From Candidatus Methylomirabilales bacterium (GTDB lineage: Bacteria; Methylomirabilota; Methylomirabilia; Methylomirabilales; CSP1-5): a DNA stretch of 22,250 nt. Position numbers and translations under genes: made by a program. Below, piece after piece: positions 7,395-18,410 of the stretch. The DNA lies in assembly GCA_046758505.1 (NCBI GenBank), contig JBHIAH010000041.1:1-22250 (forward strand), given 5' to 3'. The notes under the pieces are model-generated. The model saw nothing but the letters and a program-made list of their open reading frames with translations. It was not told where the DNA came from and searched no databases. The first letter of the stretch is position 1. Each line of letters opens with the position of its first letter.

Positions 7395-7440
7395 TGGCCG
7401 CAAGCTTCTAGGAAGATCATTCGTGCAAAGGAGAAACCCG

Positions 7441-8520
7441 ATGCGACAAGGCACAAGAGGAAGCATGAGACAGATTCGATGTGCCAGCATCACTGCTCTG
7501 GTTGCGGGTGTGGCGCTCGCCGCTCTCCCGGCTGGGGCAGCGATGCTCATCAACGGCGCCGGGGCGACCTTCCCTTTCCCAATCTATTCTAAGTGGTTTT
7601 GGCAATACCGGCAGGTCGATCCCTCGGTAAAGTTCAATTATCAGTCCATTGGGAGCGGGGGGGGTATTCGCCAAATCATTGCGCGGACCGTCGACTTCGG
7701 GGCCAGCGATGCGCCCCTCAGTGATGCAGAACTCCAGAAGGCTCCGAGCACGCTGCTCCACATTCCGACGGTCATGGGGGCCGTGGTGGTGATCTATAAT
7801 TTGAAGGGGACGGGCAAGGGTCTCAAGCTGACGGCTGCGGTCCTGGCCGACATTTTCCTGGGCAAGATCACCCGCTGGAATGATGCACGCGTGTCCAAGC
7901 TAAATCCGCGAGTGTCCCTTGCTGGCGCAGATGTCATCGTGGTCCATCGATCGGATGGGAGCGGGACCACCAGTATCTTTACCGACTATCTGTCAAGCGT
8001 GAGCCCGGAGTGGAAGGAAAAGGTCGGGCACGGCAAATCGGTGAAGTGGCCGGTGGGTCTCGGCGGCAAAGGCAACGAGGGAGTGGCCGGTCAGGTCAGA
8101 AACACGAGGGGAGCGATCGGCTATGTCGAGCTGGCCTACGCAGAGCAGAACAAGCTCTCTTATGCGGCGATACAGAACACGGCCGGACACTTTGTCGCGC
8201 CGAGCCTCAAGACCACCAGCGCTGCTGCAGCCGGTGCCGCAGCCACGATGCCGGCGGACTTCCGCATCTCGCTGGTAAACCAGCCGGGGAAACATTCCTA
8301 TCCCATTGCCGGCTTTACCTGGATTCTCGTCTATCAACAACAGCAGCACTGCAACCGCGGTCGGAAGATTGTGGAGTTTCTCTGGTGGGCGACGCACGAG
8401 GGGGAGACGTACGCGCCGGAGCTCCTCTACGCGCCGCTGCCCGATAAGGTCGTTCGGATGGTGGAGACAACGCTGAAGACGGTAACCTGTAAGGGGAAGC
8501 GGCTCCTCACTTCCAGATAG
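7441..8520 (+). CDS. pstS: Phosphate ABC transporter substrate-binding protein PstS
   Basis: AAGGAG RBS then ATG 7441 (7465 is an alternative); signal peptide; INGAGATFPFPIY, YQSIGSGGG, DFGASDAP, HRSDGSGTT, GKGNEGVA, YPIAGFTW motifs. Confidence 0.95.
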   Translation: MRQGTRGSMRQIRCASITALVAGVALAALPAGAAMLINGAGATFPFPIYSKWFWQYRQVDPSVKFNYQSIGSGGGIRQIIARTVDFGASDAPLSDAELQKAPSTLLHIPTVMGAVVVIYNLKGTGKGLKLTAAVLADIFLGKITRWNDARVSKLNPRVSLAGADVIVVHRSDGSGTTSIFTDYLSSVSPEWKEKVGHGKSVKWPVGLGGKGNEGVAGQVRNTRGAIGYVELAYAEQNKLSYAAIQNTAGHFVAPSLKTTSAAAAGAAATMPADFRISLVNQPGKHSYPIAGFTWILVYQQQQHCNRGRKIVEFLWWATHEGETYAPELLYAPLPDKVVRMVETTLKTVTCKGKRLLTSR

Positions 8521-8527
8521 GAGAGCA

Positions 8528-9532
8528 ATGGACGAGCCTTCTCGGGGCGCAGCGCATGGCCCCGGAGTCGGGGCCATGCGCGTTTCTGCAGCCTTGCGGC
8601 GACCAGGCAGCCGTTTCGGCGATCGGGCCTTCAAATCCGTCATCGCCGGGGGGGCACTGCTTGTCGTGTCACTGATGCTGGTGATGGCCACCGAGCTCGT
8701 CAGGATCTCCTGGCCGTCCCTGGGACGTTTCGGATTCAGCTTTCTCTGGAGTTCGGACTGGGACCCGGTACGGTTGGAATTCGGCGCGCTTCCGTTCATC
8801 TACGGGACGCTGGTTTCATCATTGTTGGCCCTGGCCCTCGCGGTACCGCCGAGCGTCGGTGTTGCGATATTCCTCGTCGAGTTGTGCCCGGGGTGGCTCC
8901 GGGGACCTGTGGCCTTCCTGGGAGAACTCCTGGCGGCGATCCCGAGCGTGGTGTACGGGCTCTGGGGGATTTTCGTCCTGGCCCCCTGGATGCAACAGAC
9001 CGTGCAGCCCTTTCTCAAATCCACGCTGGGGTTTCTTCCTGTGTTCCAGGGTCCCGCGTACGGCGTGGGCATGCTGACGGCGGGCATCATCCTCGCGATC
9101 ATGGTGACCCCCTTCATCTCCTCGGTGACCCGTGAGGTGCTGGCCCAGGTTCCCAACGCGCAGCGCGAGGCCGCGCTGTCCCTGGGGGCGACGCGGTGGG
9201 AGATGATCCGGGTGGCGGTGTTGCCCTACGGTCGATCGGGAATCGTGGGGGCCTGCATGTTGGGGCTCGGGCGAGCGCTGGGTGAAACGATGGCGGTCAC
9301 CATGGTGATCGGCAACCGTCCCGAGATCGCGCTCTCCCTCTTTGCTCCCGGCTACACCATGGCCTCTGTGATTGCGAACGAATTCACCGAGGCAACCCAC
9401 GATCTCTATCTGAGCACCCTGATCGAGATCGGCCTGCTCCTCTTCGTCATCACGCTACTGGTCAATGTTCTTGCCCGGCTTCTAGTGTGGCGTGGGAGCG
9501 GAGGCATTGTGACGGGGGCGCCGGAGTGGTGA
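8528..9532 (+). CDS. pstC: Phosphate ABC transporter permease PstC
   Basis: FGALPFIYGTLVSS, ELLAAIPSVVYGLWG, REAALSLGATRWE, LGRALGETMAV motifs. Confidence 0.95.
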   Translation: MDEPSRGAAHGPGVGAMRVSAALRRPGSRFGDRAFKSVIAGGALLVVSLMLVMATELVRISWPSLGRFGFSFLWSSDWDPVRLEFGALPFIYGTLVSSLLALALAVPPSVGVAIFLVELCPGWLRGPVAFLGELLAAIPSVVYGLWGIFVLAPWMQQTVQPFLKSTLGFLPVFQGPAYGVGMLTAGIILAIMVTPFISSVTREVLAQVPNAQREAALSLGATRWEMIRVAVLPYGRSGIVGACMLGLGRALGETMAVTMVIGNRPEIALSLFAPGYTMASVIANEFTEATHDLYLSTLIEIGLLLFVITLLVNVLARLLVWRGSGGIVTGAPEW

Positions 9533-9535
9533 TTG

Positions 9536-10381
9536 ATGGCGCGTGAGGGACGCCGGCGACTGATCAATCGGCTGATGGAGGGGCTTGCGGTTTTCTCCGC
9601 GGTGGTGACCCTCCTGCCGCTCGCCGTGATCCTTGCCTTCCTGATCTATCAGGGCATATCATACATCAACTGGGACTTCTTCACCAAGATGCCTCGGCCA
9701 GTCGGCGAGGCGGGTGGGGGGATGGCGAACGGGATCGTGGGCACCCTGATCCTTATTGGCATCGCCTCGCTGCTCGGGATACCGATGGGTGTTGGGGCCG
9801 GTGTCTACATCGCCGAGAACGGGCACACCCGCCTGGCCTGGACAGCTCGGTTCATGGCTGATGTCTTGAACGGCGTGCCTTCGATTGTCGTGGGCATCTT
9901 CGCGTACACGCTGGTGGTCTTGCCGATGCGGACTTTCTCCGCCCTGGCGGGCGGTGCTGCGCTCGGGATTATGATGATTCCGGTGGTCCTGCGAACGACC
10001 GAAGAGATGCTGAAACTGGTCCCGACGTCACTCCGGGAGGCCGCCCTCGCCCTGGGCGTTCCCCAGTGGAAAGTCACCGTCCGGATCGCCCTGCGGACGG
10101 CGCGGGCCGGCATCATCACTGGGATTATGCTGGCAGTAGCCCGTATCGCCGGTGAGACGGCTCCCCTCCTCTTTACCGCCTTTGGGAATCAGTTCTGGTC
10201 CGTTCGATTGGACGAGCCGATCGCGGCGATGCCGCTGCAAATCTTTACGTATGCCATCTCCCCGTACGATAGTTGGCATGCGCAGGCGTGGGCGGGCGCT
10301 CTGGTGCTGGTGTGTCTCATCCTGGTGATCAGCGTCGTGGCTCGGACGGCTGGTCGCGGTCGGTTTGGGGTCGTGAGGTAG
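9536..10381 (+). CDS. pstA: Phosphate ABC transporter permease PstA
   Basis: [52 protein letters not shown]. Start is ATG 9536 or TTG 9533. Confidence 0.95.
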
Positions 10382-10383
10382 CC

Positions 10384-11142
10384 ATGTTTGAGGGGATTGT
10401 CATCGATCGACTCAGTGCATGGTTTGGTGCAAAGCAAGTCCTCTGCGATATTGACATGAAGGTTGACGGGCGCAGGATCACCGCCATCATCGGCCCGTCG
10501 GGATGCGGGAAGTCAACCCTCATTCGATGCGTCAACCGGATGCATGAGGTCGTTCCGGAGGCCCGGGTTACCGGCCGCGTTTTGATGGACGGCCGGGACA
10601 TCTACGCGGCCGAGGTTGATCCGGTTGAGGTTCGTCGGCGGATCGGAATGGTCTTTCAGCGGCCGAATCCGTTCCCGACCATGTCGATCTACGACAACGT
10701 CGCCGCGGGTCTCAAACTCAACGGCATCCGGAAGCGGCAAATCCTTGATGAGGTCGTGGAGCGGAGCCTTACACTCGCCGCACTGTGGGATGAGGTCAGG
10801 GACGACCTCCGCAAGTCCGGGACGAGCCTCTCGGGAGGGCAGCAGCAGCGCCTGTGCATCGCCCGGGCGATCGCGGTGGAGCCCGAGGTCCTATTGATGG
10901 ACGAGCCGTGCTCGGCCCTCGATCCGGTGGCCACCGCCAAGGTCGAGGAGTTGATGCTCGACCTGAAGAAGGATTACACCATCGTTATCGTGACGCACAA
11001 CATGCAGCAGGCGGCGCGCGTATCCGACTTCACCGGGTTTCTGCTGCTGGGGCAGCTCGTCGAGTTCGGTGGGACCCGCGATCTGTTTACCACGCCGAAG
11101 GATTCCCGGACCGAGGCGTACATCACCGGGCGGTTCGGCTAA
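10384..11142 (+). CDS. pstB: Phosphate ABC transporter ATPase PstB
   Basis: ATG 10384 after [13 protein letters not shown] Walker [39 protein letters not shown]-terminal YITGRFG. Confidence 0.95.
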
Positions 11143-11153
11143 GGAGGCGACGG

Positions 11154-12512
11154 ATGATCAGGCCCTTTGAGGCGGAACTCCAGGAACTCAAAGAGCAGCT
11201 CCTGGTGATGGGGGGACTGGCGGAAACCATGATTCAGCTCAGCGTCCAGGCCCTGGTAGAACGCAATGCGAGGCTCGCACGGGAAATCTTTCGGCACGAG
11301 GAAGAGATGGATCAGCGGTGCATTGACCTCGATGACCGGAGCTTCAAGCTGCTGGCCCTCCGCCAGCCGGTCGCCTCCGATCTGCGCTTTATCGTCGCCG
11401 GGATCAGGATCAACAGTGAACTCGAGCGGATCGGCGATCTGACGGTCAATATCGCCTTGCGGACGCTCGCCCTACTCGAAGAGCCGCCCATCCGACCGCT
11501 GATCGATATGCCAAAGATGGCGGAGCTAGCCCAAGAGATGGTCAAGCGCAGCCTGGACGCGTTCGTGAGCCGGAATCCGGACCTGGCGCGAGGCGTCATC
11601 GAGGCGGACGATACCGTCGATACGCTTCGGGATCGGTTCTTCCAGGAGCTCGTAGGCTTCATGGCCCACGAGCCGGAAGCGATTCCGCGGGCCCTGGACC
11701 TGATGCTGATATCTCGGAATCTGGAGCGCATTGCCGATCATGCGACGAACGTCGCCGAGGATGTCATCTATATGGCGAAGGGGGAGGATGTGCGGGAGCG
11801 AGGCGATAAAGAGATCCGGAAGGGAATCCGGTCCCCGGAGGAGGCGGCCAAGGCCCATCCCTCCTCCTTCTCTGGTGAGGGTCCGGTCGCTCGGGCCCGT
11901 GAGAAGGAGGAAGAGCTCTTCGGTCTGTTCCGAGAGGCGGCCGCCAACGTTCTGGCGGGGGCCAAAGCCTTACAGGAGTTGTTCGAGCGATACGCCGATC
12001 CCCGGGGGCAGTGGGACCGCATCGAGCAGCTAGAACGGCGGGGAGATGAACTAACCCATCAGATCATCCGACGGCTCAACGAGACGTTCATTACGATCCT
12101 CGATCGATCGGACCTCCACGGGCTCGCCTCGCGTCTCGACGATGTGCTCGACGGGATCGAGGCGGTGACCTCGCGGATGGTCCTCTACGCGATACCCGAG
12201 CCCACGCCGGCGGCGCGTGAGCTGGCCGGCCTCATTGTTGTCTCTGCAGAGCAGATTGTGCGGGCCATGGACCGGTTACCTCGGTTCGCGGACGTGGAAG
12301 AGATGTGCGTGGAAATCAACCGGCTGGAGAACGTCGCGGATCACGCCTACCGTCAGGCCATCGCCTCGTTGTTCCGGGAGGATCGCCCCGCCGCGGATTT
12401 GATCAAGTGGAAAGAGATCTACGACGCCCTCGAGACGACCACTGATCGCTGCGAGGACGTCTCTGACGTGATGGAGGCCATTGCCCTCAAGCGGCGGGTC
12501 CTCGGCTTCTGA
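11154..12512 (+). CDS. phoU: PhoU fused to a C-terminal DUF47 (TIGR00153, Pit-accessory PhoU-like) domain
   Basis: AAGGAGG RBS then ATG 11154. PhoU motifs LALRQPVASDLR, ELERIGD, RNLERIADHATNVAEDVIY..GEDVR; after a linker, DUF47 motifs ERRGDELTH, LNETFITILDRSD, LDDVLD, INRLENVAD, LIKWKEIYDALETTTDRCEDV. Confidence 0.85.
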   Translation: MIRPFEAELQELKEQLLVMGGLAETMIQLSVQALVERNARLAREIFRHEEEMDQRCIDLDDRSFKLLALRQPVASDLRFIVAGIRINSELERIGDLTVNIALRTLALLEEPPIRPLIDMPKMAELAQEMVKRSLDAFVSRNPDLARGVIEADDTVDTLRDRFFQELVGFMAHEPEAIPRALDLMLISRNLERIADHATNVAEDVIYMAKGEDVRERGDKEIRKGIRSPEEAAKAHPSSFSGEGPVARAREKEEELFGLFREAAANVLAGAKALQELFERYADPRGQWDRIEQLERRGDELTHQIIRRLNETFITILDRSDLHGLASRLDDVLDGIEAVTSRMVLYAIPEPTPAARELAGLIVVSAEQIVRAMDRLPRFADVEEMCVEINRLENVADHAYRQAIASLFREDRPAADLIKWKEIYDALETTTDRCEDVSDVMEAIALKRRVLGF

Positions 12513-12536: not shown

Positions 12537-12869
12537 ATGGTGCTGATCGGCACGTCGATGGCCCTCTTTGTCCTGGCCGGGTTCTGTGAAATCGGGGGCG
12601 GCTATTTGGTCTGGCAATGGTATCGAAACGGCTGGAGTCTCATCTACGGTCTCCTCGGGGGCGCGGTCCTCTTCCTCTATGGGGTGATTCCCACGTACCA
12701 ACCCGCCCATTTCGGCCGGGTCTACGCCGCGTACGGCGGCATCTTCGTCGTCCTCTCGTTATTGTGGGGCTGGGCGATTGACGGTCGAGCGCCGGACCGC
12801 ACCGATCTGCTCGGCGGAATGATCTGCCTGGCGGGCGTGGCCGTCATCATGTACTGGCCGCGAGCCTGA
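12537..12869 (+). CDS. ynfA: YnfA/UPF0060 family small membrane protein (SMR-like)
   Basis: [40 protein letters not shown] signature; GGAGG RBS. Confidence 0.9.
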
Positions 12870-12870
12870 G

Positions 12871-13311
12871 ATGAAAGTGCTGTTCGTCTGCACGGGCAAT
12901 TCGGCGCGGAGCCAGATGGCCGAGGCCTTTGCCCGCCACTACGGGAAGGGACGGGTCGAGGCATCGAGTGCCGGCCTCGATCCCAAGGGACTTCACCCGC
13001 TCACGACCAAGGTGATGGCGGAGAAGGGGATCGATGTCTCACATCAGGAGTCCAAGGCGTTGACCGAGGAAATGGTCCAGGAGGCCGATGTCATCGTCAC
13101 CGTGTGCGGCCACGCCGATCACCACTGCCCGGCCCTTCCCTCCGGCGCCCGCAAGGTCCACTGGCCCATCGAAGACCCCGCTCTTGTGAGCGACCGCACC
13201 CCTGAGGAGGTGCTCTCGGCTTTCCGCCGAGCGCGAGACGACCTCGAGTCCCGCATCCGCAACTTCCTATCTATGCTCGGACGCGAGAACGCTGGGACGC
13301 TAGCACGCTAA
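12871..13311 (+). CDS. arsC: Thioredoxin-coupled arsenate reductase (LMW-PTP fold)
   Basis: P-loop VCTGNSARSQMAE, resolving cysteines in VTVCGHADHHCP, HWPIEDP. Confidence 0.85.
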   Translation: MKVLFVCTGNSARSQMAEAFARHYGKGRVEASSAGLDPKGLHPLTTKVMAEKGIDVSHQESKALTEEMVQEADVIVTVCGHADHHCPALPSGARKVHWPIEDPALVSDRTPEEVLSAFRRARDDLESRIRNFLSMLGRENAGTLAR

Positions 13312-13395: not shown

Positions 13396-13776
13396 CTAGC
13401 GTTCCAGCCCATTCGAGTCGAGCCACCGTGACAGCCACGTGCGGTTTCGGGCGATCCAGCGGTAGATCCGGTCGGCCACCCACATGCCGCCCGGCGCGTG
13501 AAAAGGGAGGGTCGTCAGGGCGGCGTTGGGGAGTCTCGCCAGGGTTTCGCGGACGGCAGCCGCTCCCGTAAAGATTTGTCCGCGCTCGTCGATCAGGTGG
13601 AGTTCGTCGCGGCAGCGCTCTCGCGAGAGGCTTGGGAAACGCGCTTCGAGGTCGGGCTCCTGGAAAGGAATCAGCTCGAGGCGCCTGCTACCGTCCCGCC
13701 GGTGGACCCACCGAGCGAAGCGCCGTCAGAGCCCTCAGTCGCCATCGTAGATGACCACCACCTTACGGTCTAGCAT
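13396..13776 (-). CDS. DCC/DUF393 thiol-disulfide oxidoreductase with UxxU motif (putative double selenoprotein, 126 aa)
   Basis: Translated by hand: MLDRKVVVIYDGD-U-GL-U-RRFARWVHRRDGSRRLELIPFQ...ELHLIDERGQIFTGAAAV...DRIYRWIARNR...LER*. TGA at 13735-13737 and 13726-13728 replace both Cys of the DCC YDGxCxxC motif; family similarity continues past them. Confidence 0.85.
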
Positions 13777-13993
13777 CCCGATCGCCCCCCGGTCGTGTCC
13801 GGTACCGCAGCCAGCCCAGCAGGGCCATTCCCAGGAACAGGGATAGGAGGGGAAACAGCACATAGTCCAGGTAGGGGACCAGCAGGGTGAGGCCGACCAG
13901 GCCGAGCACCCACGGCAAGACCGGCGTGAAACAGCACACGGCCGTGACAATGGTCCCCCACAGCCCTGTTTTGACCAATGGTTGTTTCTGCAT
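13763..13993 (-). CDS. merF: Mercury transport membrane protein MerF
   Basis: GTIVTAVCCFTPVL...GLVGL...YLDYVLFP closely matches MerF (ALCCFTPVL...GYLDYVLLP). It lacks the C-terminal Cys pair. Confidence 0.9.
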   Translation of the reverse strand: MQKQPLVKTGLWGTIVTAVCCFTPVLPWVLGLVGLTLLVPYLDYVLFPLLSLFLGMALLGWLRYRTRPGGDRDARP

Positions 13994-13999
13994 CGTTGC

Positions 14000-14290
14000 T
14001 CAATCCTTGATTTGTTCCAGGGCATAGGCCCCGAACTCGTAGGTGACGCGTTGCTTGGCACCGTGGCACTCGATGAGGTCGCCCGGCTGCACATCGTCGG
14101 GCAAGATCACCATCTCCTCGCCGACGGCACAGCTCGCCTTCTTCACCTCCGTCACGGACCAGACGCCGTCCTCCTCGCTCGCCCGGAGCGAGAGGCCGGC
14201 TCAGTTGGGGCAGTCGAAGACGTCCCCGCGTGTGATCCCAACCGGGATCCCGATCTCTTGCCCTCAGCCCTTGCAGAGTGCTGTCGGCAT
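14000..14290 (-). CDS. Small LysW-like zinc-ribbon protein with two CxxU motifs (putative selenoprotein, 96 aa)
   Basis: GGGAGAAG RBS then ATG 14290: MPTALCKG-U-GQEIGIPVGITRGDVFDCPN-U-AGLSLRASEEDGVWSVTEVKKASCAVGEEMVILPDDVQPGDLIECHGAKQRVTYEFGAYALEQIKD*. TGA at 14264-14266 and 14201-14203 complete the CxxC knuckles; the gene fills the operon gap up to merF. Confidence 0.75.
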
Positions 14291-14308
14291 CGCTCTTCTC
14301 CCCCGGGG

Positions 14309-14504
14309 CTAGCCCCGATCCGAAATTGTCCCCCGACCACGACCCTTTGAATGGCCTTGGAGAAATTGTGTGTCCAGATTGCGAGCAGCCGCTTCTGCCC
14401 CACTCCTGGGGCGTACGCAGCTAACGATGTAATCCTCCTGATTTCGGGGATGAATGCCAATTTCCGAAATTCTAGCGGTCAACCTTTTTTCGGATCGGGG
14501 CTAG
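14309..14504. mobile_element. MITE-like non-autonomous element (188 bp) flanked by CTAG
   Basis: CTAG|CCCCGATCCGAAA (14313-14325) ... TTTCGGATCGGGG (14488-14500)|CTAG: perfect 13-bp terminal inverted repeat, AT-richer interior, located at the glutaredoxin stop codon. Confidence 0.65.
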
Positions 14505-14737
14505 CCGATCCCGAGCAGCCGCTCGATCCTTCCCCGGTCAAAGCCGACGATCACCTCGCCGTCGATGACCGTGACCGGGGTCGCCCGCACCCCCAGCTTG
14601 ACCAGTTCGTCGAGCGCCTGTTGGTCTTCCCGGATATTCTTGGCGATGAACTGGACACCCTTGTGAGAAAGAAACTCTTTCTCTTGGTCGCAGGCGCCTC
14701 AGCCGGGCTGGGTATAGACGATCACCTGTTTCGCCAT
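14501..14737 (-). CDS. Glutaredoxin-like (NrdH/YruB-type) redoxin with UxxC active site (putative selenoprotein, 78 aa)
   Basis: AAGGAGG RBS then ATG 14737: MAKQVIVYTQPG-U-GACDQEKEFLSHKGVQFIAKNIREDQQALDELVKLGVRATPVTVIDGEVIVGFDRGRIERLLGIG*. TGA at 14699-14701; cis-Pro TP and IVGFD Grx motifs lie downstream. Confidence 0.9.
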
Positions 14738-14798: not shown

Positions 14799-15464
14799 TC
14801 ATCGCATTGGTGGTTCGGGCTCGACCAGGAGCGAGCCAAAGATTTCACGCCCGGCCTCGAAGGCCTCGAGCAGAGAGAGGACGACGCCGGAGGGCTCCCC
14901 GTGTCCCCGCTGCCAGGCCTCGAGGTGGTCACCGGTGCAGAAGAAGCTGATGTGCGGACACCGGGATTGGGCGACGGAACAGCAGTTGTCTTCTTCCGGT
15001 GTGGGAAACCACACAACGATCCCGGAAGGGAGATATCGCGCCAGGTTTTCGGGCTCTGCCCGAACCTCGACGGGCGACTCGCAGTGGGCACAGCGAGACG
15101 AGATTCCCGCGCTCTCCTGCAGCATGGCCGGTATCCCCAGGGCATCCACGGCACACAGGGCAAACACCTCTCGACCGGCGAGGAGGACCCGGTGCGGGGT
15201 CGGGGTCGCAGAGAACGGATAGGATCCCAGCACCGTTTCCACTGTCTGGTCGAGAAAGCAGAGGTCCAGATCCGTCAGTCGGCGAAGGATCTCCCGAACT
15301 CGAACAGAAGAGAGTCCACAGTGATTTTGAAGGCTCGAGACCTCTGGGATTGCCCCCGAGGCAAAGATTTGCAGGATATGGCGCCGGACGTTGTCCTCTT
15401 CCACGGTAAGCCGAGCGGCACTCAATCGGTCCGCGACGGTCTTCACGCTATCAGGGAGCAGCAT
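14799..15464 (-). CDS. merB: MerB-family alkylmercury (organomercurial) lyase
   Basis: N-terminal helical/HTH region, GSYPFSATPTPHRV, FALCAVDALG (catalytic Cys and Asp), SRCAHC, SRCPHISFF (second catalytic Cys); AGGAG RBS. Confidence 0.8.
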   Translation of the reverse strand: MLLPDSVKTVADRLSAARLTVEEDNVRRHILQIFASGAIPEVSSLQNHCGLSSVRVREILRRLTDLDLCFLDQTVETVLGSYPFSATPTPHRVLLAGREVFALCAVDALGIPAMLQESAGISSRCAHCESPVEVRAEPENLARYLPSGIVVWFPTPEEDNCCSVAQSRCPHISFFCTGDHLEAWQRGHGEPSGVVLSLLEAFEAGREIFGSLLVEPEPPMR

Positions 15465-15517: not shown

Positions 15518-15874
15518 CTACCGGCGTCGGTCGATTCGGGTACAGGCCCAGATGTGCTCGGCGTTATTCGCCACCATGTCGCGCGCCAGCTCCAGAACCT
15601 TTCGAACCCGCTTGTCGGCCACCCGGTAATACCGGTTTCGCCCCTCCCGGGAGGCGGTCACATAGCCGCACCAGCTCAAGCAGGCCAGGTGGCTGGAGAC
15701 GCGCCCCTGGGGGATGCCGAGGATTTCCACGAGCTGGGTGACGGTGCGCTCACCCTCGAGGAGCAGCTCGAGGATTTTCAGGCGGCTCGGATCCCCGAGG
15801 CCACGGAAGAACTTGGCCTCCAGCTGTAGCTGCTCCAGTTCACCGGCCGGAAGCCTATTGCTGAGTGATGACAC
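15518..15874 (-). CDS. ArsR/SmtB-family metal-sensing repressor (CmtR / actinobacterial MerR-like alpha4C type)
   Basis: FRGLGDPSRLKIL, VSSHLACLSWCGYV (CxxxC in helix 4), REGRNRYYR, and a C-terminal Cys (HIWACTR). Confidence 0.85.
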   Translation of the reverse strand: MSSLSNRLPAGELEQLQLEAKFFRGLGDPSRLKILELLLEGERTVTQLVEILGIPQGRVSSHLACLSWCGYVTASREGRNRYYRVADKRVRKVLELARDMVANNAEHIWACTRIDRRR

Positions 15875-16190: not shown

Positions 16191-17594
16191 GTGAATCAGG
16201 ACAAGGGAGCGTTGAGCCGGATTACCGGAGGCATCCACAAGGTCGCGGAGCGGCCGCTGTCCCCGCCCCGGACGCTCGCCTTGGGGTACGGCGTCTGCAT
16301 TCTGGTGGGGACCGGGCTCCTCATGCTGCCGTACGCCACGGCGGCGGGGGAGAGTCCTCGTCTGATCGAGGCGCTGTTTACGGCGACCTCCGCCGTCTGC
16401 GTCACCGGCCTCATCGTCGTTGACACCGCCCGGTTCTGGTCCCCCTTTGGTCACGGGGTGATCCTGGCCCTGATCCAGGTGGGGGGACTTGGATACATGA
16501 CCGTCTCGACCTTCATTGCCCTGCTCCTCAGGCAGCGGGTCTCCCTGCGGGAGCGGGTTGTCCTGCAAAAGGCGGTCGGGATGCTCACGCTCGACGGGGT
16601 GACCCACTTCCTCAAGCGGATCCTCCTGATTACGGCCGTGGCGGAGGGGGTGGCGACGCTGATTCTCACCCTCCGATTTGCGACGGCACATCCGATCGGC
16701 GAGGCCTTCTTTCTCGGCCTGTTTCACGCCGTCTCCGCGTTTAACAATGCGGGGTTCAGCTTGTTCTCCAACAACCTGGCAGGCTATGTGGCCGACCCGG
16801 TGGTGAACCTTACCGTGGCCTTCAGTGTCATCTTGGGCGGGATAGGCTACCTGGTGATAGGCGAGTTCCTGGAGCGGCGGCGCGAGGGTACCCCCAGGCG
16901 CCTCTCGGTCCATACCCGGTTGGTGCTGCGGGTGACGGCGGGACTCCTGGGGGGCAGCTTCCTGCTTTTCCTCCTCCTGGAGTGGAACAATGCCGCGACG
17001 CTTGGCTCGATGGCGGTTCCCGAACGGCTGCTTGCCGCGTTCTTCCAGGCGGTGACGCCGCGGACGGCCGGGTTCAACACGGTCGGCATTGGGTCTCTCC
17101 GCGAGGCCACGCTTTTTATCTTCCTCGTGCTGATGTTCATCGGGGCATCTCCGGGCGGGACGGGGGGCGGGATCAAGACCACGACCTTCGGGACAGTCCT
17201 GGTCACGCTCTGGAGGAGCCTCCGGGGGGATCGGGACGTCAACGTGTTGGGCCGTCGCCTGCCCCAGAAGGTCCTCAACGACGCCTTTATCCTCGCGAGC
17301 CTCTCCTTCGTCTATGTGGTGGTGGTCACGCTGGTCCTGATGCTGGCCGAGGGCTATCCGTATCTGTTCACACTCTTCGAGGTGACGTCGGCCTTCGGGA
17401 CAATCGGGCTTTCCACGGGCGTCCCGGGCCTGCCGACCAGCCTCTGTAGTATCTTTACCGATTTTGGTAAGATCATCATTGGCGTGACCATGCTCGTGGG
17501 CCGCATCGGTCCCGTCACGTTGGGGGCGGCCCTCTTGTCCAGGGAGCCGACGCCCAGCTATCGGCTGCTGGAAGAGCAGGTTCTCATTGGCTAG
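16191..17594 (+). CDS. ktrB: Trk/Ktr potassium uptake membrane subunit (KtrB/TrkH)
   Basis: Four pore motifs: TATSAVCVTGL, SAFNNAGF, TPRTAGFNT, FEVTSAFGTIGLS; IGASPGGTGGGIKTTT; ends VLIG. The true start may be TTG 16212 given the promoter position. Confidence 0.92.
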   Translation: MNQDKGALSRITGGIHKVAERPLSPPRTLALGYGVCILVGTGLLMLPYATAAGESPRLIEALFTATSAVCVTGLIVVDTARFWSPFGHGVILALIQVGGLGYMTVSTFIALLLRQRVSLRERVVLQKAVGMLTLDGVTHFLKRILLITAVAEGVATLILTLRFATAHPIGEAFFLGLFHAVSAFNNAGFSLFSNNLAGYVADPVVNLTVAFSVILGGIGYLVIGEFLERRREGTPRRLSVHTRLVLRVTAGLLGGSFLLFLLLEWNNAATLGSMAVPERLLAAFFQAVTPRTAGFNTVGIGSLREATLFIFLVLMFIGASPGGTGGGIKTTTFGTVLVTLWRSLRGDRDVNVLGRRLPQKVLNDAFILASLSFVYVVVVTLVLMLAEGYPYLFTLFEVTSAFGTIGLSTGVPGLPTSLCSIFTDFGKIIIGVTMLVGRIGPVTLGAALLSREPTPSYRLLEEQVLIG

Positions 17595-17726
17595 TACCGT
17601 TCCAACTTGTTGCGCCGAATACGGGCAAGGCCGGTTCCGACGAAGGAACGGGCCAAGGAAGCCAGCTGGCTTGCACTTGGCACCACACACCTCTATGCTT
17701 GGCGAGAGCAGTTGGAACGGCACTAA
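17591..17726. mobile_element. MITE/REP-like element (~128 bp) between ktrB and ktrA
   Basis: CTAG|TACCGTTCCAACT (17595-17607) ... AGTTGGAACGGCA (17710-17722)|CTAA: 12/13 inverted repeat, located at the ktrB stop codon and immediately before the ktrA RBS. Confidence 0.6.
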
Positions 17727-17735
17727 GGAGCAGGG

Positions 17736-18410
17736 ATGAGTCAGTCGCAGTTTGCCGTGATCGGCCTGGGGAACTTCGGGTACGCGGTGGCCAGGACCTT
17801 GGCGGAAAAGGGACGCCAGGTCCTCTGTATCGACCGGTGGGAGGAGCGGTTGGAACGGGTCCGCGAGATCGCGACCCATGCGGTCCAGGCGGATGCAACC
17901 GATGAGAAGGCCCTGCGGGAGGTGGGGGTGGCCGAGGTGGATTGCGCGGTGGTGAGCCTGGGCCAAGCCATGGAGGCGAGCCTGTTGGCCGCCATGGCAC
18001 TGCGCGAGATCGGGGTGAAGGAGCTGGTGGTCAAGGCGGTGAGCCCCCTCCATGGCCGCATCCTGAAAAAGCTGGGGGTCGACCGGGTGGTCTTTCCGGA
18101 GGCGGATATGGGCCGGCGGGTGGCGGAGAGCCTGGTCACCCCGTCGATCCTGGACTATCTGGAGCTGGGGGAGGGATTTGGGGTGGCCGAGGTCGGCGCG
18201 CCACAGACATTCTGGGGCAAGAGCTTGGCTGAGCTTGAGCTGCGGAGGCAGTATGGCGTCACGATCCTCGCCATCCGCCGGGCCTCCAAGGGCGAGCAGC
18301 CGAACATCGTGGCGAACCCCTCGGGGGCAGACGTCATTCGGGAGGGGGACATCCTCGTAATTATCGGGGAGAACGAGAAGCTGGAGCAACTCAGTGCGGC
18401 AGGGGAGTGA
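17736..18410 (+). CDS. ktrA: Ktr/Trk regulatory RCK subunit (KtrA/TrkA)
   Basis: FAVIGLGNFG Rossmann motif, VQADATDE, VDRVVFPEADMG, TrkA_C GKSLAELELRRQYGVTILAIRR...GDILVIIG; AAGGAG RBS. Confidence 0.92.
   Translation: MSQSQFAVIGLGNFGYAVARTLAEKGRQVLCIDRWEERLERVREIATHAVQADATDEKALREVGVAEVDCAVVSLGQAMEASLLAAMALREIGVKELVVKAVSPLHGRILKKLGVDRVVFPEADMGRRVAESLVTPSILDYLELGEGFGVAEVGAPQTFWGKSLAELELRRQYGVTILAIRRASKGEQPNIVANPSGADVIREGDILVIIGENEKLEQLSAAGE

Follow-up and report, generated by a model that had tools for sequence, protein, structure and literature searches.

The window, by which we mean the whole stretch of 22,250 nucleotides analysed here, carries on its minus strand an operon that reads, from 5′ to 3′, an ArsR-type regulator, a MerB-like protein, a glutaredoxin with a U-x-x-C motif, a spacer, a tandem zinc-ribbon protein, MerF and a DCC-like protein with a U-x-x-U motif, U standing for a predicted selenocysteine (Sec). 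Five in-frame TGAs are distributed over three of these genes. The host lineage of the operon is Methylomirabilota (NC10/Rokubacteria), a phylum in which Deng et al. 2026 reportedly counted 63 selenoprotein genes in one MAG. The features discussed below are the following:

15518 to 15874, minus strand: ArsR/SmtB repressor with a putative CmtR-like site (a pair of Cys in its DNA-binding helix plus one Cys near the C-terminus)
14799 to 15464, minus strand: MerB-like organomercurial lyase, over the PF03243 cut-off and below the NCBIfam MerB cut-offs
14501 to 14737, minus strand: YruB/NrdH-like glutaredoxin, U-x-x-C, with its TGA at 14699-14701
14307 to 14506, no strand: MITE-like 210-nt spacer between the glutaredoxin and ribbon genes, with 19-nt perfect inverted repeats at 14307-14325 and 14488-14506
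14000 to 14290, minus strand: predicted tandem LysW-fold ribbon (seleno)protein, 96 aa
14264 to 14266, minus strand: in-frame TGA of ribbon codon 9, predicted Sec
14234 to 14249, minus strand: SECIS-like hairpin that follows the codon-9 TGA at nt 15-30 (stem of 6 bp, GG-led loop of 4 nt)
14201 to 14203, minus strand: in-frame TGA of ribbon codon 30, predicted Sec
14165 to 14200, minus strand: SECIS-like hairpin that follows the codon-30 TGA (CGGGC loop on a core stem at 14176-14190)
13763 to 13993, minus strand: MerF mercury transporter (NF033565, 74.6 bits, cut-off 50)
13396 to 13776, minus strand: thiol-disulfide oxidoreductase-like ORF, U-x-x-U, with TGAs at 13735-13737 and 13726-13728

The ribbon gene starts with an ATG at 14290 and ends with a TGA at 14000-14002, and under translation table 11 no ORF is listed at 14000-14290. 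A first-pass annotation, made from the sequence before this analysis, had its coordinates and its TGAs at codons 9 and 30 right. It had also placed the ribbon between MerF and MerB, and on this point it has to be corrected in that the ribbon is not next to merB: a Sec-glutaredoxin, absent from that annotation, and the 210-nt spacer separate the two. The spacer bounded by the inverted repeats is present as a single copy in the window genome, and the glutaredoxin is matched by selenoprotein models of NCBIfam 20.0. Taking Cys96/Asp99/Cys159 as the catalytic columns of MerB, the MerB-like protein of the window has, by motif, CAVD (CxxD) and a Cys at the Cys159 column, the third SaoL/MerB position. 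The regulator is CmtR-like and not a MerR, and resembles a Cd/Pb sensor at 61.6 bits (cut-off 150); its putative metal site was mapped from the description in PMC11672702, where a CmtR-type site is a Cd sensor and where an ArsR-regulated mer operon has a precedent in Streptomyces lividans.

With both TGAs read as Sec, ribbon 1 of the window protein has the motifs C6-x2-U9 and C27-x2-U30. To follow these positions in relatives, we used 67 distinct full-length genes from fetched loci, a subset of the matching genomes from which duplicates, the partial or broken copies L026, L027 and L082 and the weak match L028 were excluded. At codon 9, 26 of them have TGA, 40 have TGY and one has CGT, and at codon 30, 43 have TGA and 24 have TGY; that is, the two columns hold TGA or TGC/TGT only, the single CGT excepted. 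Codon 6 is Cys in 67/67, codon 27 is Cys in 65 and TGA in two, and neither TAA nor TAG occurs at any of these four columns in the 67 genes. The first-pass annotation had tied its reading to homologues spanning the TGA positions, and such homologues, full-length and all-Cys, were found. All-Cys forms account for 662 proteins and for 22 of the 67 genes of the curated set, and are present even in genomes with selA. In a search of the phylum, ribbon matches with 0 to 3 internal TGAs were obtained in 75/251 Methylomirabilota genomes, and close relatives of the window protein belong to NC10/Methylomirabilota. Many database entries are C-terminal pieces of 55-63 aa that begin after codon 30, which is why the family was overlooked. 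The ribbon genes of loci L063 and L064 each contain in-frame TGAs at three positions (CxxU...UxxU), and a distance of only three codons separates two of these.

The ribbon protein is predicted to consist of two LysW-fold ribbons. An AlphaFold2 model, computed from an alignment of 36 sequences with U entered as C, is all-beta (pLDDT 94.4, pTM 0.76), and a VIA-align comparison with 48,161 chains put LysW chains on top (Z 7.0, rmsd 3.0 over 56 aa; Z 6.0, rmsd 1.6 over 47 aa), the next row having a Z of 3.6. A VIA-align Z under 8 is modest, and Foldseek and the HMMs agree on LysW, the best Foldseek match being LysW at an E-value of 0.025 with none at E<=0.001. No rubredoxin was found among the structural matches listed. 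In ESM Atlas, with an all-Cys relative as query, only auto-named LysW-like clusters from Methylomirabilota were recovered. The internal duplication that the first-pass annotation had read from its gap-free repeats also stands: matching residues 4-27 to 52-75 (offset 48) by eye requires no gap, the local alignment of one half of the window protein against the other reaches p=0.001 against 2000 shuffles, and for three all-Cys homologues 0/2000 shuffles were as good. Outside the gap-free stretch quoted there, the second knuckle of repeat 2 is shorter by a deletion of three residues.

The two metal sites differ in their ligands. In the window protein, site 1 is C6/U9/C27/U30 and site 2 is C54/(G57)/C75/H76. 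The 67 genes fall into a subtype with C54, C57, C75 and C76 at site 2 (30 genes plus one variant) and the subtype of the window, in which C57 is lost and C54, C75 and H76 are left (36 genes), the latter grouping on a single weakly supported branch. In this subfamily, the loss of two Cys may have turned ribbon 2 into an open entry site or left it merely structural. All 26 TGA-9 genes belong to it, and its reduced-site-2 genes have at least one TGA in 36/36 cases, which are not independent because they form one clade. TGA at codon 30 is scattered over a tree with many unresolved forks; built from few columns and with unsettled bootstrap values, this tree gives no order of Sec gains and losses.

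Each TGA is followed by a hairpin that fits the bSECIS consensus of PMC13188914 (stem of 4-16 bp, loop of 3-9 nt, G in the first two loop positions, spacing of 16-37 nt). The codon-9 hairpin has 6 bp and a GGTT loop at nt 21; the codon-30 hairpin has a 5-bp core inside a longer stem and its CGGGC loop at nt 16, the lower edge of the spacing. The stems follow the TGA state at positions that we picked after inspection of the TGA genes, and among related genes that are not independent: all six pairs of the codon-9 stem are formed in 20/26 TGA genes vs 2/40 Cys genes (1/10 for the Cys genes of the window's subfamily), and the fixed 5-bp stem after codon 30 (nt 11-15/21-25, CGGGY-type loop) is complete in 41/43 TGA vs 3/24 Cys genes. 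One of its pairs is GC in 35 genes and CG in 8. Within the subfamily with four Cys at site 2, the codon-30 stem is found in 8/8 TGA vs 2/23 Cys genes, and the peptide downstream of codon 30 is nearly identical in the two groups. It is only this position-specific test that tells the TGA and Cys groups apart. A generic folding test, in which the 45 nt downstream are compared with synonymous shuffles, separates them weakly, with mean z values of -0.57 (TGA) vs -0.15 (Cys) at codon 30 and of -0.42 vs +0.11 at codon 9. For the window gene itself, folding gives -24.5 kcal/mol and z -3.1 at codon 30, and a z of only +0.4 at codon 9.

The window genome contains tRNA-Sec, selA and selB. Among the carrier genomes, selA was found in 53/61; six of the eight without a selA match have TGA ribbon genes, and these assemblies are mostly incomplete, the 99% complete G217 being a genome with a TGA ribbon gene and no selA match. 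A genome-wide recoding of TGA to Trp or Gly was considered and rejected, as TGA terminates ordinary genes here, the ribbon gene included, and tRNA-Trp(CCA) and tRNA-Sec(TCA) are both in the window genome. From these sequence features, we infer with high confidence that the ribbon protein is a selenoprotein into which Sec is inserted at the UGAs.

The claim of a new selenoprotein family made by the first-pass annotation is borne out by the interchange of TGA and Cys, the SECIS-like hairpins, the Sec machinery and the lack of a catalogue match. Indeed, a catalogue published in 2026 that covers 119 families of prokaryotic selenoproteins has no LysW-like entry in the accessible part of its Table 1 (PMC13188914), and the available texts of deep-Sep (PMC12013277), BSepDB (PMC13326102) and the SAO preprint (bioRxiv 2022.07.06.499078) do not mention LysW. 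With NCBIfam 20.0, the 36 ribbon members returned only generic ribbon models and no selenoprotein model among the matches listed (25 of 26 families). We found no description of the ribbon family in the literature searched; Haft and Tolstoy 2025, Deng et al. 2026 and the BSepDB family table may bear on this point. The ribbon proteins have a known fold and apparently constitute a selenoprotein family that is not yet in the catalogues. The mer-like operon that they mark encodes several selenoproteins, is mostly without MerA and is apparently undescribed as well.

Each half of the protein shares the zinc-ribbon fold of the LysW/ArgW carriers (PF21344, NF041070, TIGR01206; PDB 3vpb, whose title lists Zn, and 3wwl), and the LysW-like CxxC...CxxC site is kept in ribbon 1. 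It differs from them by its tandem duplication, its Sec ligands and its location in a heavy-metal operon instead of among lysine or arginine genes. Sec in a CxxC ribbon-type motif has a precedent in the FmdB family (TIGR02605), for which a zinc-ribbon selenoprotein was reported from two GOS sequences (PMC2398784) and which is listed as UxxU in Table 1 of PMC13188914. Thus, the use of Sec as a ribbon metal ligand, which the first-pass annotation called unusual, is rare but has a precedent. FmdB is nonetheless a different, single-domain family, with no mer context noted in the accessible text of PMC2398784; TIGR02605 gives weak matches in 8/36 ribbon family members (best E 1.7e-5) and none with the window protein. 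As in the SAO system (SaoL, Haft and Gwadz; NF040728), several selenoproteins are encoded together with a MerB-like protein, and many MerB-like relatives share with SaoL a Sec at the Cys159 column. In contrast to SAO, the MerB-like proteins here lack the CU motif (NF040728 68.1 and 51.4, cut-off 140), the operon has MerT/F/P-type uptake genes and a glutaredoxin, and the phylum is another one; an SAO-type ABC transporter was not seen among the recurring ribbon neighbours. With the classical mer operon (merR-T-P-F/C/E-A-B), the ribbon operon shares a MerF over cut-off, common MerT/E/C/P-like and MerB-like genes and, at locus L083, MerA; it differs in that it is mostly without MerA, has gained a Sec-glutaredoxin and the ribbon, and has several components recoded to Sec.

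The most constant neighbour of the ribbon is the glutaredoxin, found within 3 kb of 65/67 ribbon genes and directly upstream in 61/65 loci with enough DNA, and bearing a TGA in its own motif at all loci where the motif was found. Within the same distance of the 67 genes, we counted MerB-like genes at 47, HMA/MerP-like at 37 and MerT-like at 32, MerF being under-counted at the threshold of this tally. Any MerB/T/F/E/C-like gene is present at 57/67 loci and none at 10/67. In selected loci, a Pfam scan of 123 neighbour ORFs and an NCBIfam scan of 15 confirmed MerB, MerE, MerC, HMA and MerF, as well as MerR-family and CopZ-like genes, and L083 has a true MerA in the same operon (561 bits, cut-off 454). 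A metagenome scan with one distant homologue gave 26 loci, of which 8 weak ones (E 2e-6 or worse) were dropped; in this distant, mostly all-Cys clade the glutaredoxin lies upstream of the ribbon in 18/18 loci and TGA-30 occurs in 1/18, and locus L107 has ArsR, MerT-like, MerP-like, MerF and MerB-like genes in addition. Five homologues are longer: three are in-frame ribbon-MerT-like fusions, one is an in-frame ribbon-MerE-MerT-like fusion and one is a probable mis-start. These ribbon-transporter fusions may be stop-loss read-throughs. A plasmid tblastn search with P0131 as query gave no match.

Many of the surrounding proteins also carry predicted Sec. MerP-like HMA proteins with GMTUxxU occur in many loci (e.g. 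L074, L085, L107), and a MerT-like protein with a C-U pair at L083 and L093; for MerP/MerT-like proteins, forms with Sec have been listed before. At the Cys159 column of the MerB-like neighbours, U is found in 22/44 rows, duplicates included; such proteins with a single TGA at this column, distinct from the CU motif of SaoL, occur widely across Methylomirabilota (e.g. L035, L064, L074). Just downstream at L064 and L067 lies a glutathione-reductase/MerA-like flavoprotein whose CxxxxC redox centre has a TGA in place of the second Cys, that of L064 scoring below the MerA cut-off. As for regulation, ECF sigma factor genes replace or accompany ArsR at L005, L064, L069, L083, L093, L108 and L109, joined by zf-HC2 anti-sigma genes in most of these seven loci.

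What the ribbon does can be proposed from its fold, ligands and gene context. The reading that we prefer, with confidence about evenly balanced, is that of a cytoplasmic soft-metal acceptor, most likely for Hg(II), that is kept reduced by the glutaredoxin. SelB would read both UGAs as Sec, giving a tetrahedral Cys2Sec2 site that is probably loaded with Zn at rest, and the CmtR-like ArsR would derepress the operon upon binding a soft metal. Metal entering via MerP/MerT/MerF, or freed by the MerB-like lyase, would then be taken up by the ribbon, whose selenolates should out-compete cellular thiols, the affinity of Hg for Se being the textbook basis for such a preference. The co-translated U-x-x-C glutaredoxin would keep the ribbon reduced or unload it, and the metal would be stored or, where such an enzyme is present, handed to MerA or to a flavoenzyme resembling glutathione reductase.

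The Hg chaperone or sink proposed in the first-pass annotation stays the best single explanation, inferred from context. The steadiest partner of the ribbon is the Sec-glutaredoxin, not MerB or MerF, and mer-type genes are missing at 10 of the 67 loci, which counts against this explanation. The weakest link is the identity of the metal, because the regulator has a CmtR-type site and the MerB-like proteins fall below the equivalog cut-offs. These proteins also count against an Hg acceptor as such, being under the NCBIfam MerB cut-offs, and a protein that belongs to PF03243 does not necessarily have Hg as its substrate (bioRxiv 2022.07.06.499078); at some loci, Cu-chaperone-like CopZ and MerR/CueR-like genes speak against Hg as well. 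The glutaredoxin linkage, tighter than that of any mer gene and kept in the distant clade, would suit a redox partner of this enzyme, either a rubredoxin-like Fe(Cys/Sec)4 carrier or a Zn-release switch feeding electrons to metal or disulfide reduction. Some operons do encode glutathione-reductase-like flavoproteins, of which two have a predicted Sec in their redox centre. In Synechocystis, glutaredoxin acts together with a MerA-like enzyme (PMC8261052), and a redox function is assumed for the majority of selenoproteins (PMC13188914). However, the best structural matches are LysW chains, with no rubredoxin among the rows listed, a glutathione-reductase-like gene lies within 3 kb at only 4/67 loci and the fusion partners of the ribbon are transporters. 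We hold a redox role to be possible but doubtful. Somewhat less likely still is a structural Zn adaptor or scaffold that binds the glutaredoxin or a transporter by surface charge, as LysW does, with Sec as a near-neutral swap for Cys. The abundance of all-Cys forms, also in selA genomes, the occurrence of Sec in nearly all Cys motifs that the operon encodes (glutaredoxin, MerP-like, MerB-like, MerT-like) and the scatter of codon-30 TGA on the tree would be expected if this were so, but up to three UGAs with dedicated hairpins would be costly to keep, the hairpins follow the TGA state and the reduced-site-2 genes, albeit a single clade, all have at least one TGA.

Two further readings have far less in their favour. 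If the TGAs were true stops, the gene would be a pseudogene or would yield only a C-terminal piece of 59-66 aa, in line with the many truncated database proteins; this is highly improbable given that the stops are confined to Cys-ligand columns and are never TAA or TAG, that the N-terminal part stays conserved and that both the hairpins and the Sec machinery were found. A role as an amino-group carrier of the LysW type in making lysine or arginine, which for lysine the first-pass annotation had judged unlikely too, is largely refuted and the least probable of all. The fold and the weak HMM matches are what suggests it, the window protein scoring 19.9 with PF21344 (cut-off 27) and 39.3 bits with NF041070 (cut-off 75), and some all-Cys relatives passing PF21344 (e.g. 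P0109 with 32.9). LysW/ArgW carriers end in an EDWGE acceptor motif. No such tail is present in the family alignment, the C-terminus of the window protein being GAYALEQIKD. In addition, the window genome, 96.8% complete, has no PF21344 match and no LysX over cut-off (best TIGR02144 score 26 bits, cut-off 276), and no lysine or arginine genes are among the recurring ribbon neighbours.

Returning to the soft-metal acceptor, we compared the distribution of the ribbon with those of MerA and MerB. MerB-like (PF03243) genes are found in 156/251 Methylomirabilota genomes and a canonical MerA over the cut-off of 454 bits in 8/251, six candidates being scored per genome; the window genome has no MerA over this cut-off, its best candidate reaching 399 bits. 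The 69 ribbon genomes that remain after 6 weak matches were dropped have a MerB-like gene in 57/69 and MerA in 4/69. MerB-like genes also occur in 99/182 genomes without the ribbon, and 4 of the 8 MerA genomes have the ribbon; hence the ribbon is neither needed for MerB without MerA nor exclusive of MerA, and the reading in which it replaces MerA is weakened. How cells with MerB only cope with Hg(II) is stated as an open problem in PMC8261052, and the mer-like operon offers small, concrete and testable candidates for such handling. We can tentatively propose, as a less than likely extension, that Methylomirabilota run a selenium-based, largely MerA-independent Hg system in which cleavage of organomercury by a Sec-MerB, import by Sec-MerP/MerT, a Cys2Sec2 (up to CysSec3) ribbon trap and recycling by Sec-glutaredoxin would act together. 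If true, the ribbon would be the first case in nature of a zinc-ribbon metal trap built on selenolates, in a phylum abundant in soil and groundwater, and the system would offer one explanation of how MerB can function in the absence of MerA.

The family puts predicted Sec at metal-ligand positions of structural type. Its members have from 0 to 3 of them on the same 96-aa scaffold, a natural series that lends itself to testing the role of Se in tetrahedral metal sites. The family also brings to light a mer-like operon with several selenoproteins, which had been hidden in databases by truncation at stop codons.

Finally, the last ORF of the window operon, which we take to be DCC/DUF393-like, has no NCBIfam match at 1e-8 in its C-terminal part, and DCC/DUF393-like ORFs with U-x-x-U were also seen at L003, L013, L015 and L026. 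It is possibly a second unlisted selenoprotein, no DUF393 entry having been seen in the accessible part of the 2026 catalogue (PMC13188914). Named from their ORF sequences, YnfA (UPF0060) and an LMW-PTP/ArsC-like gene at 12537-13311 on the plus strand converge on the operon, and are preceded by a pstSCAB-phoU-like phosphate cluster at about 7423-12512. On the other side, the plus-strand genes at 16191-18410 are presumably an ordinary TrkH/KtrB-like and TrkA/KtrA-like potassium uptake pair.
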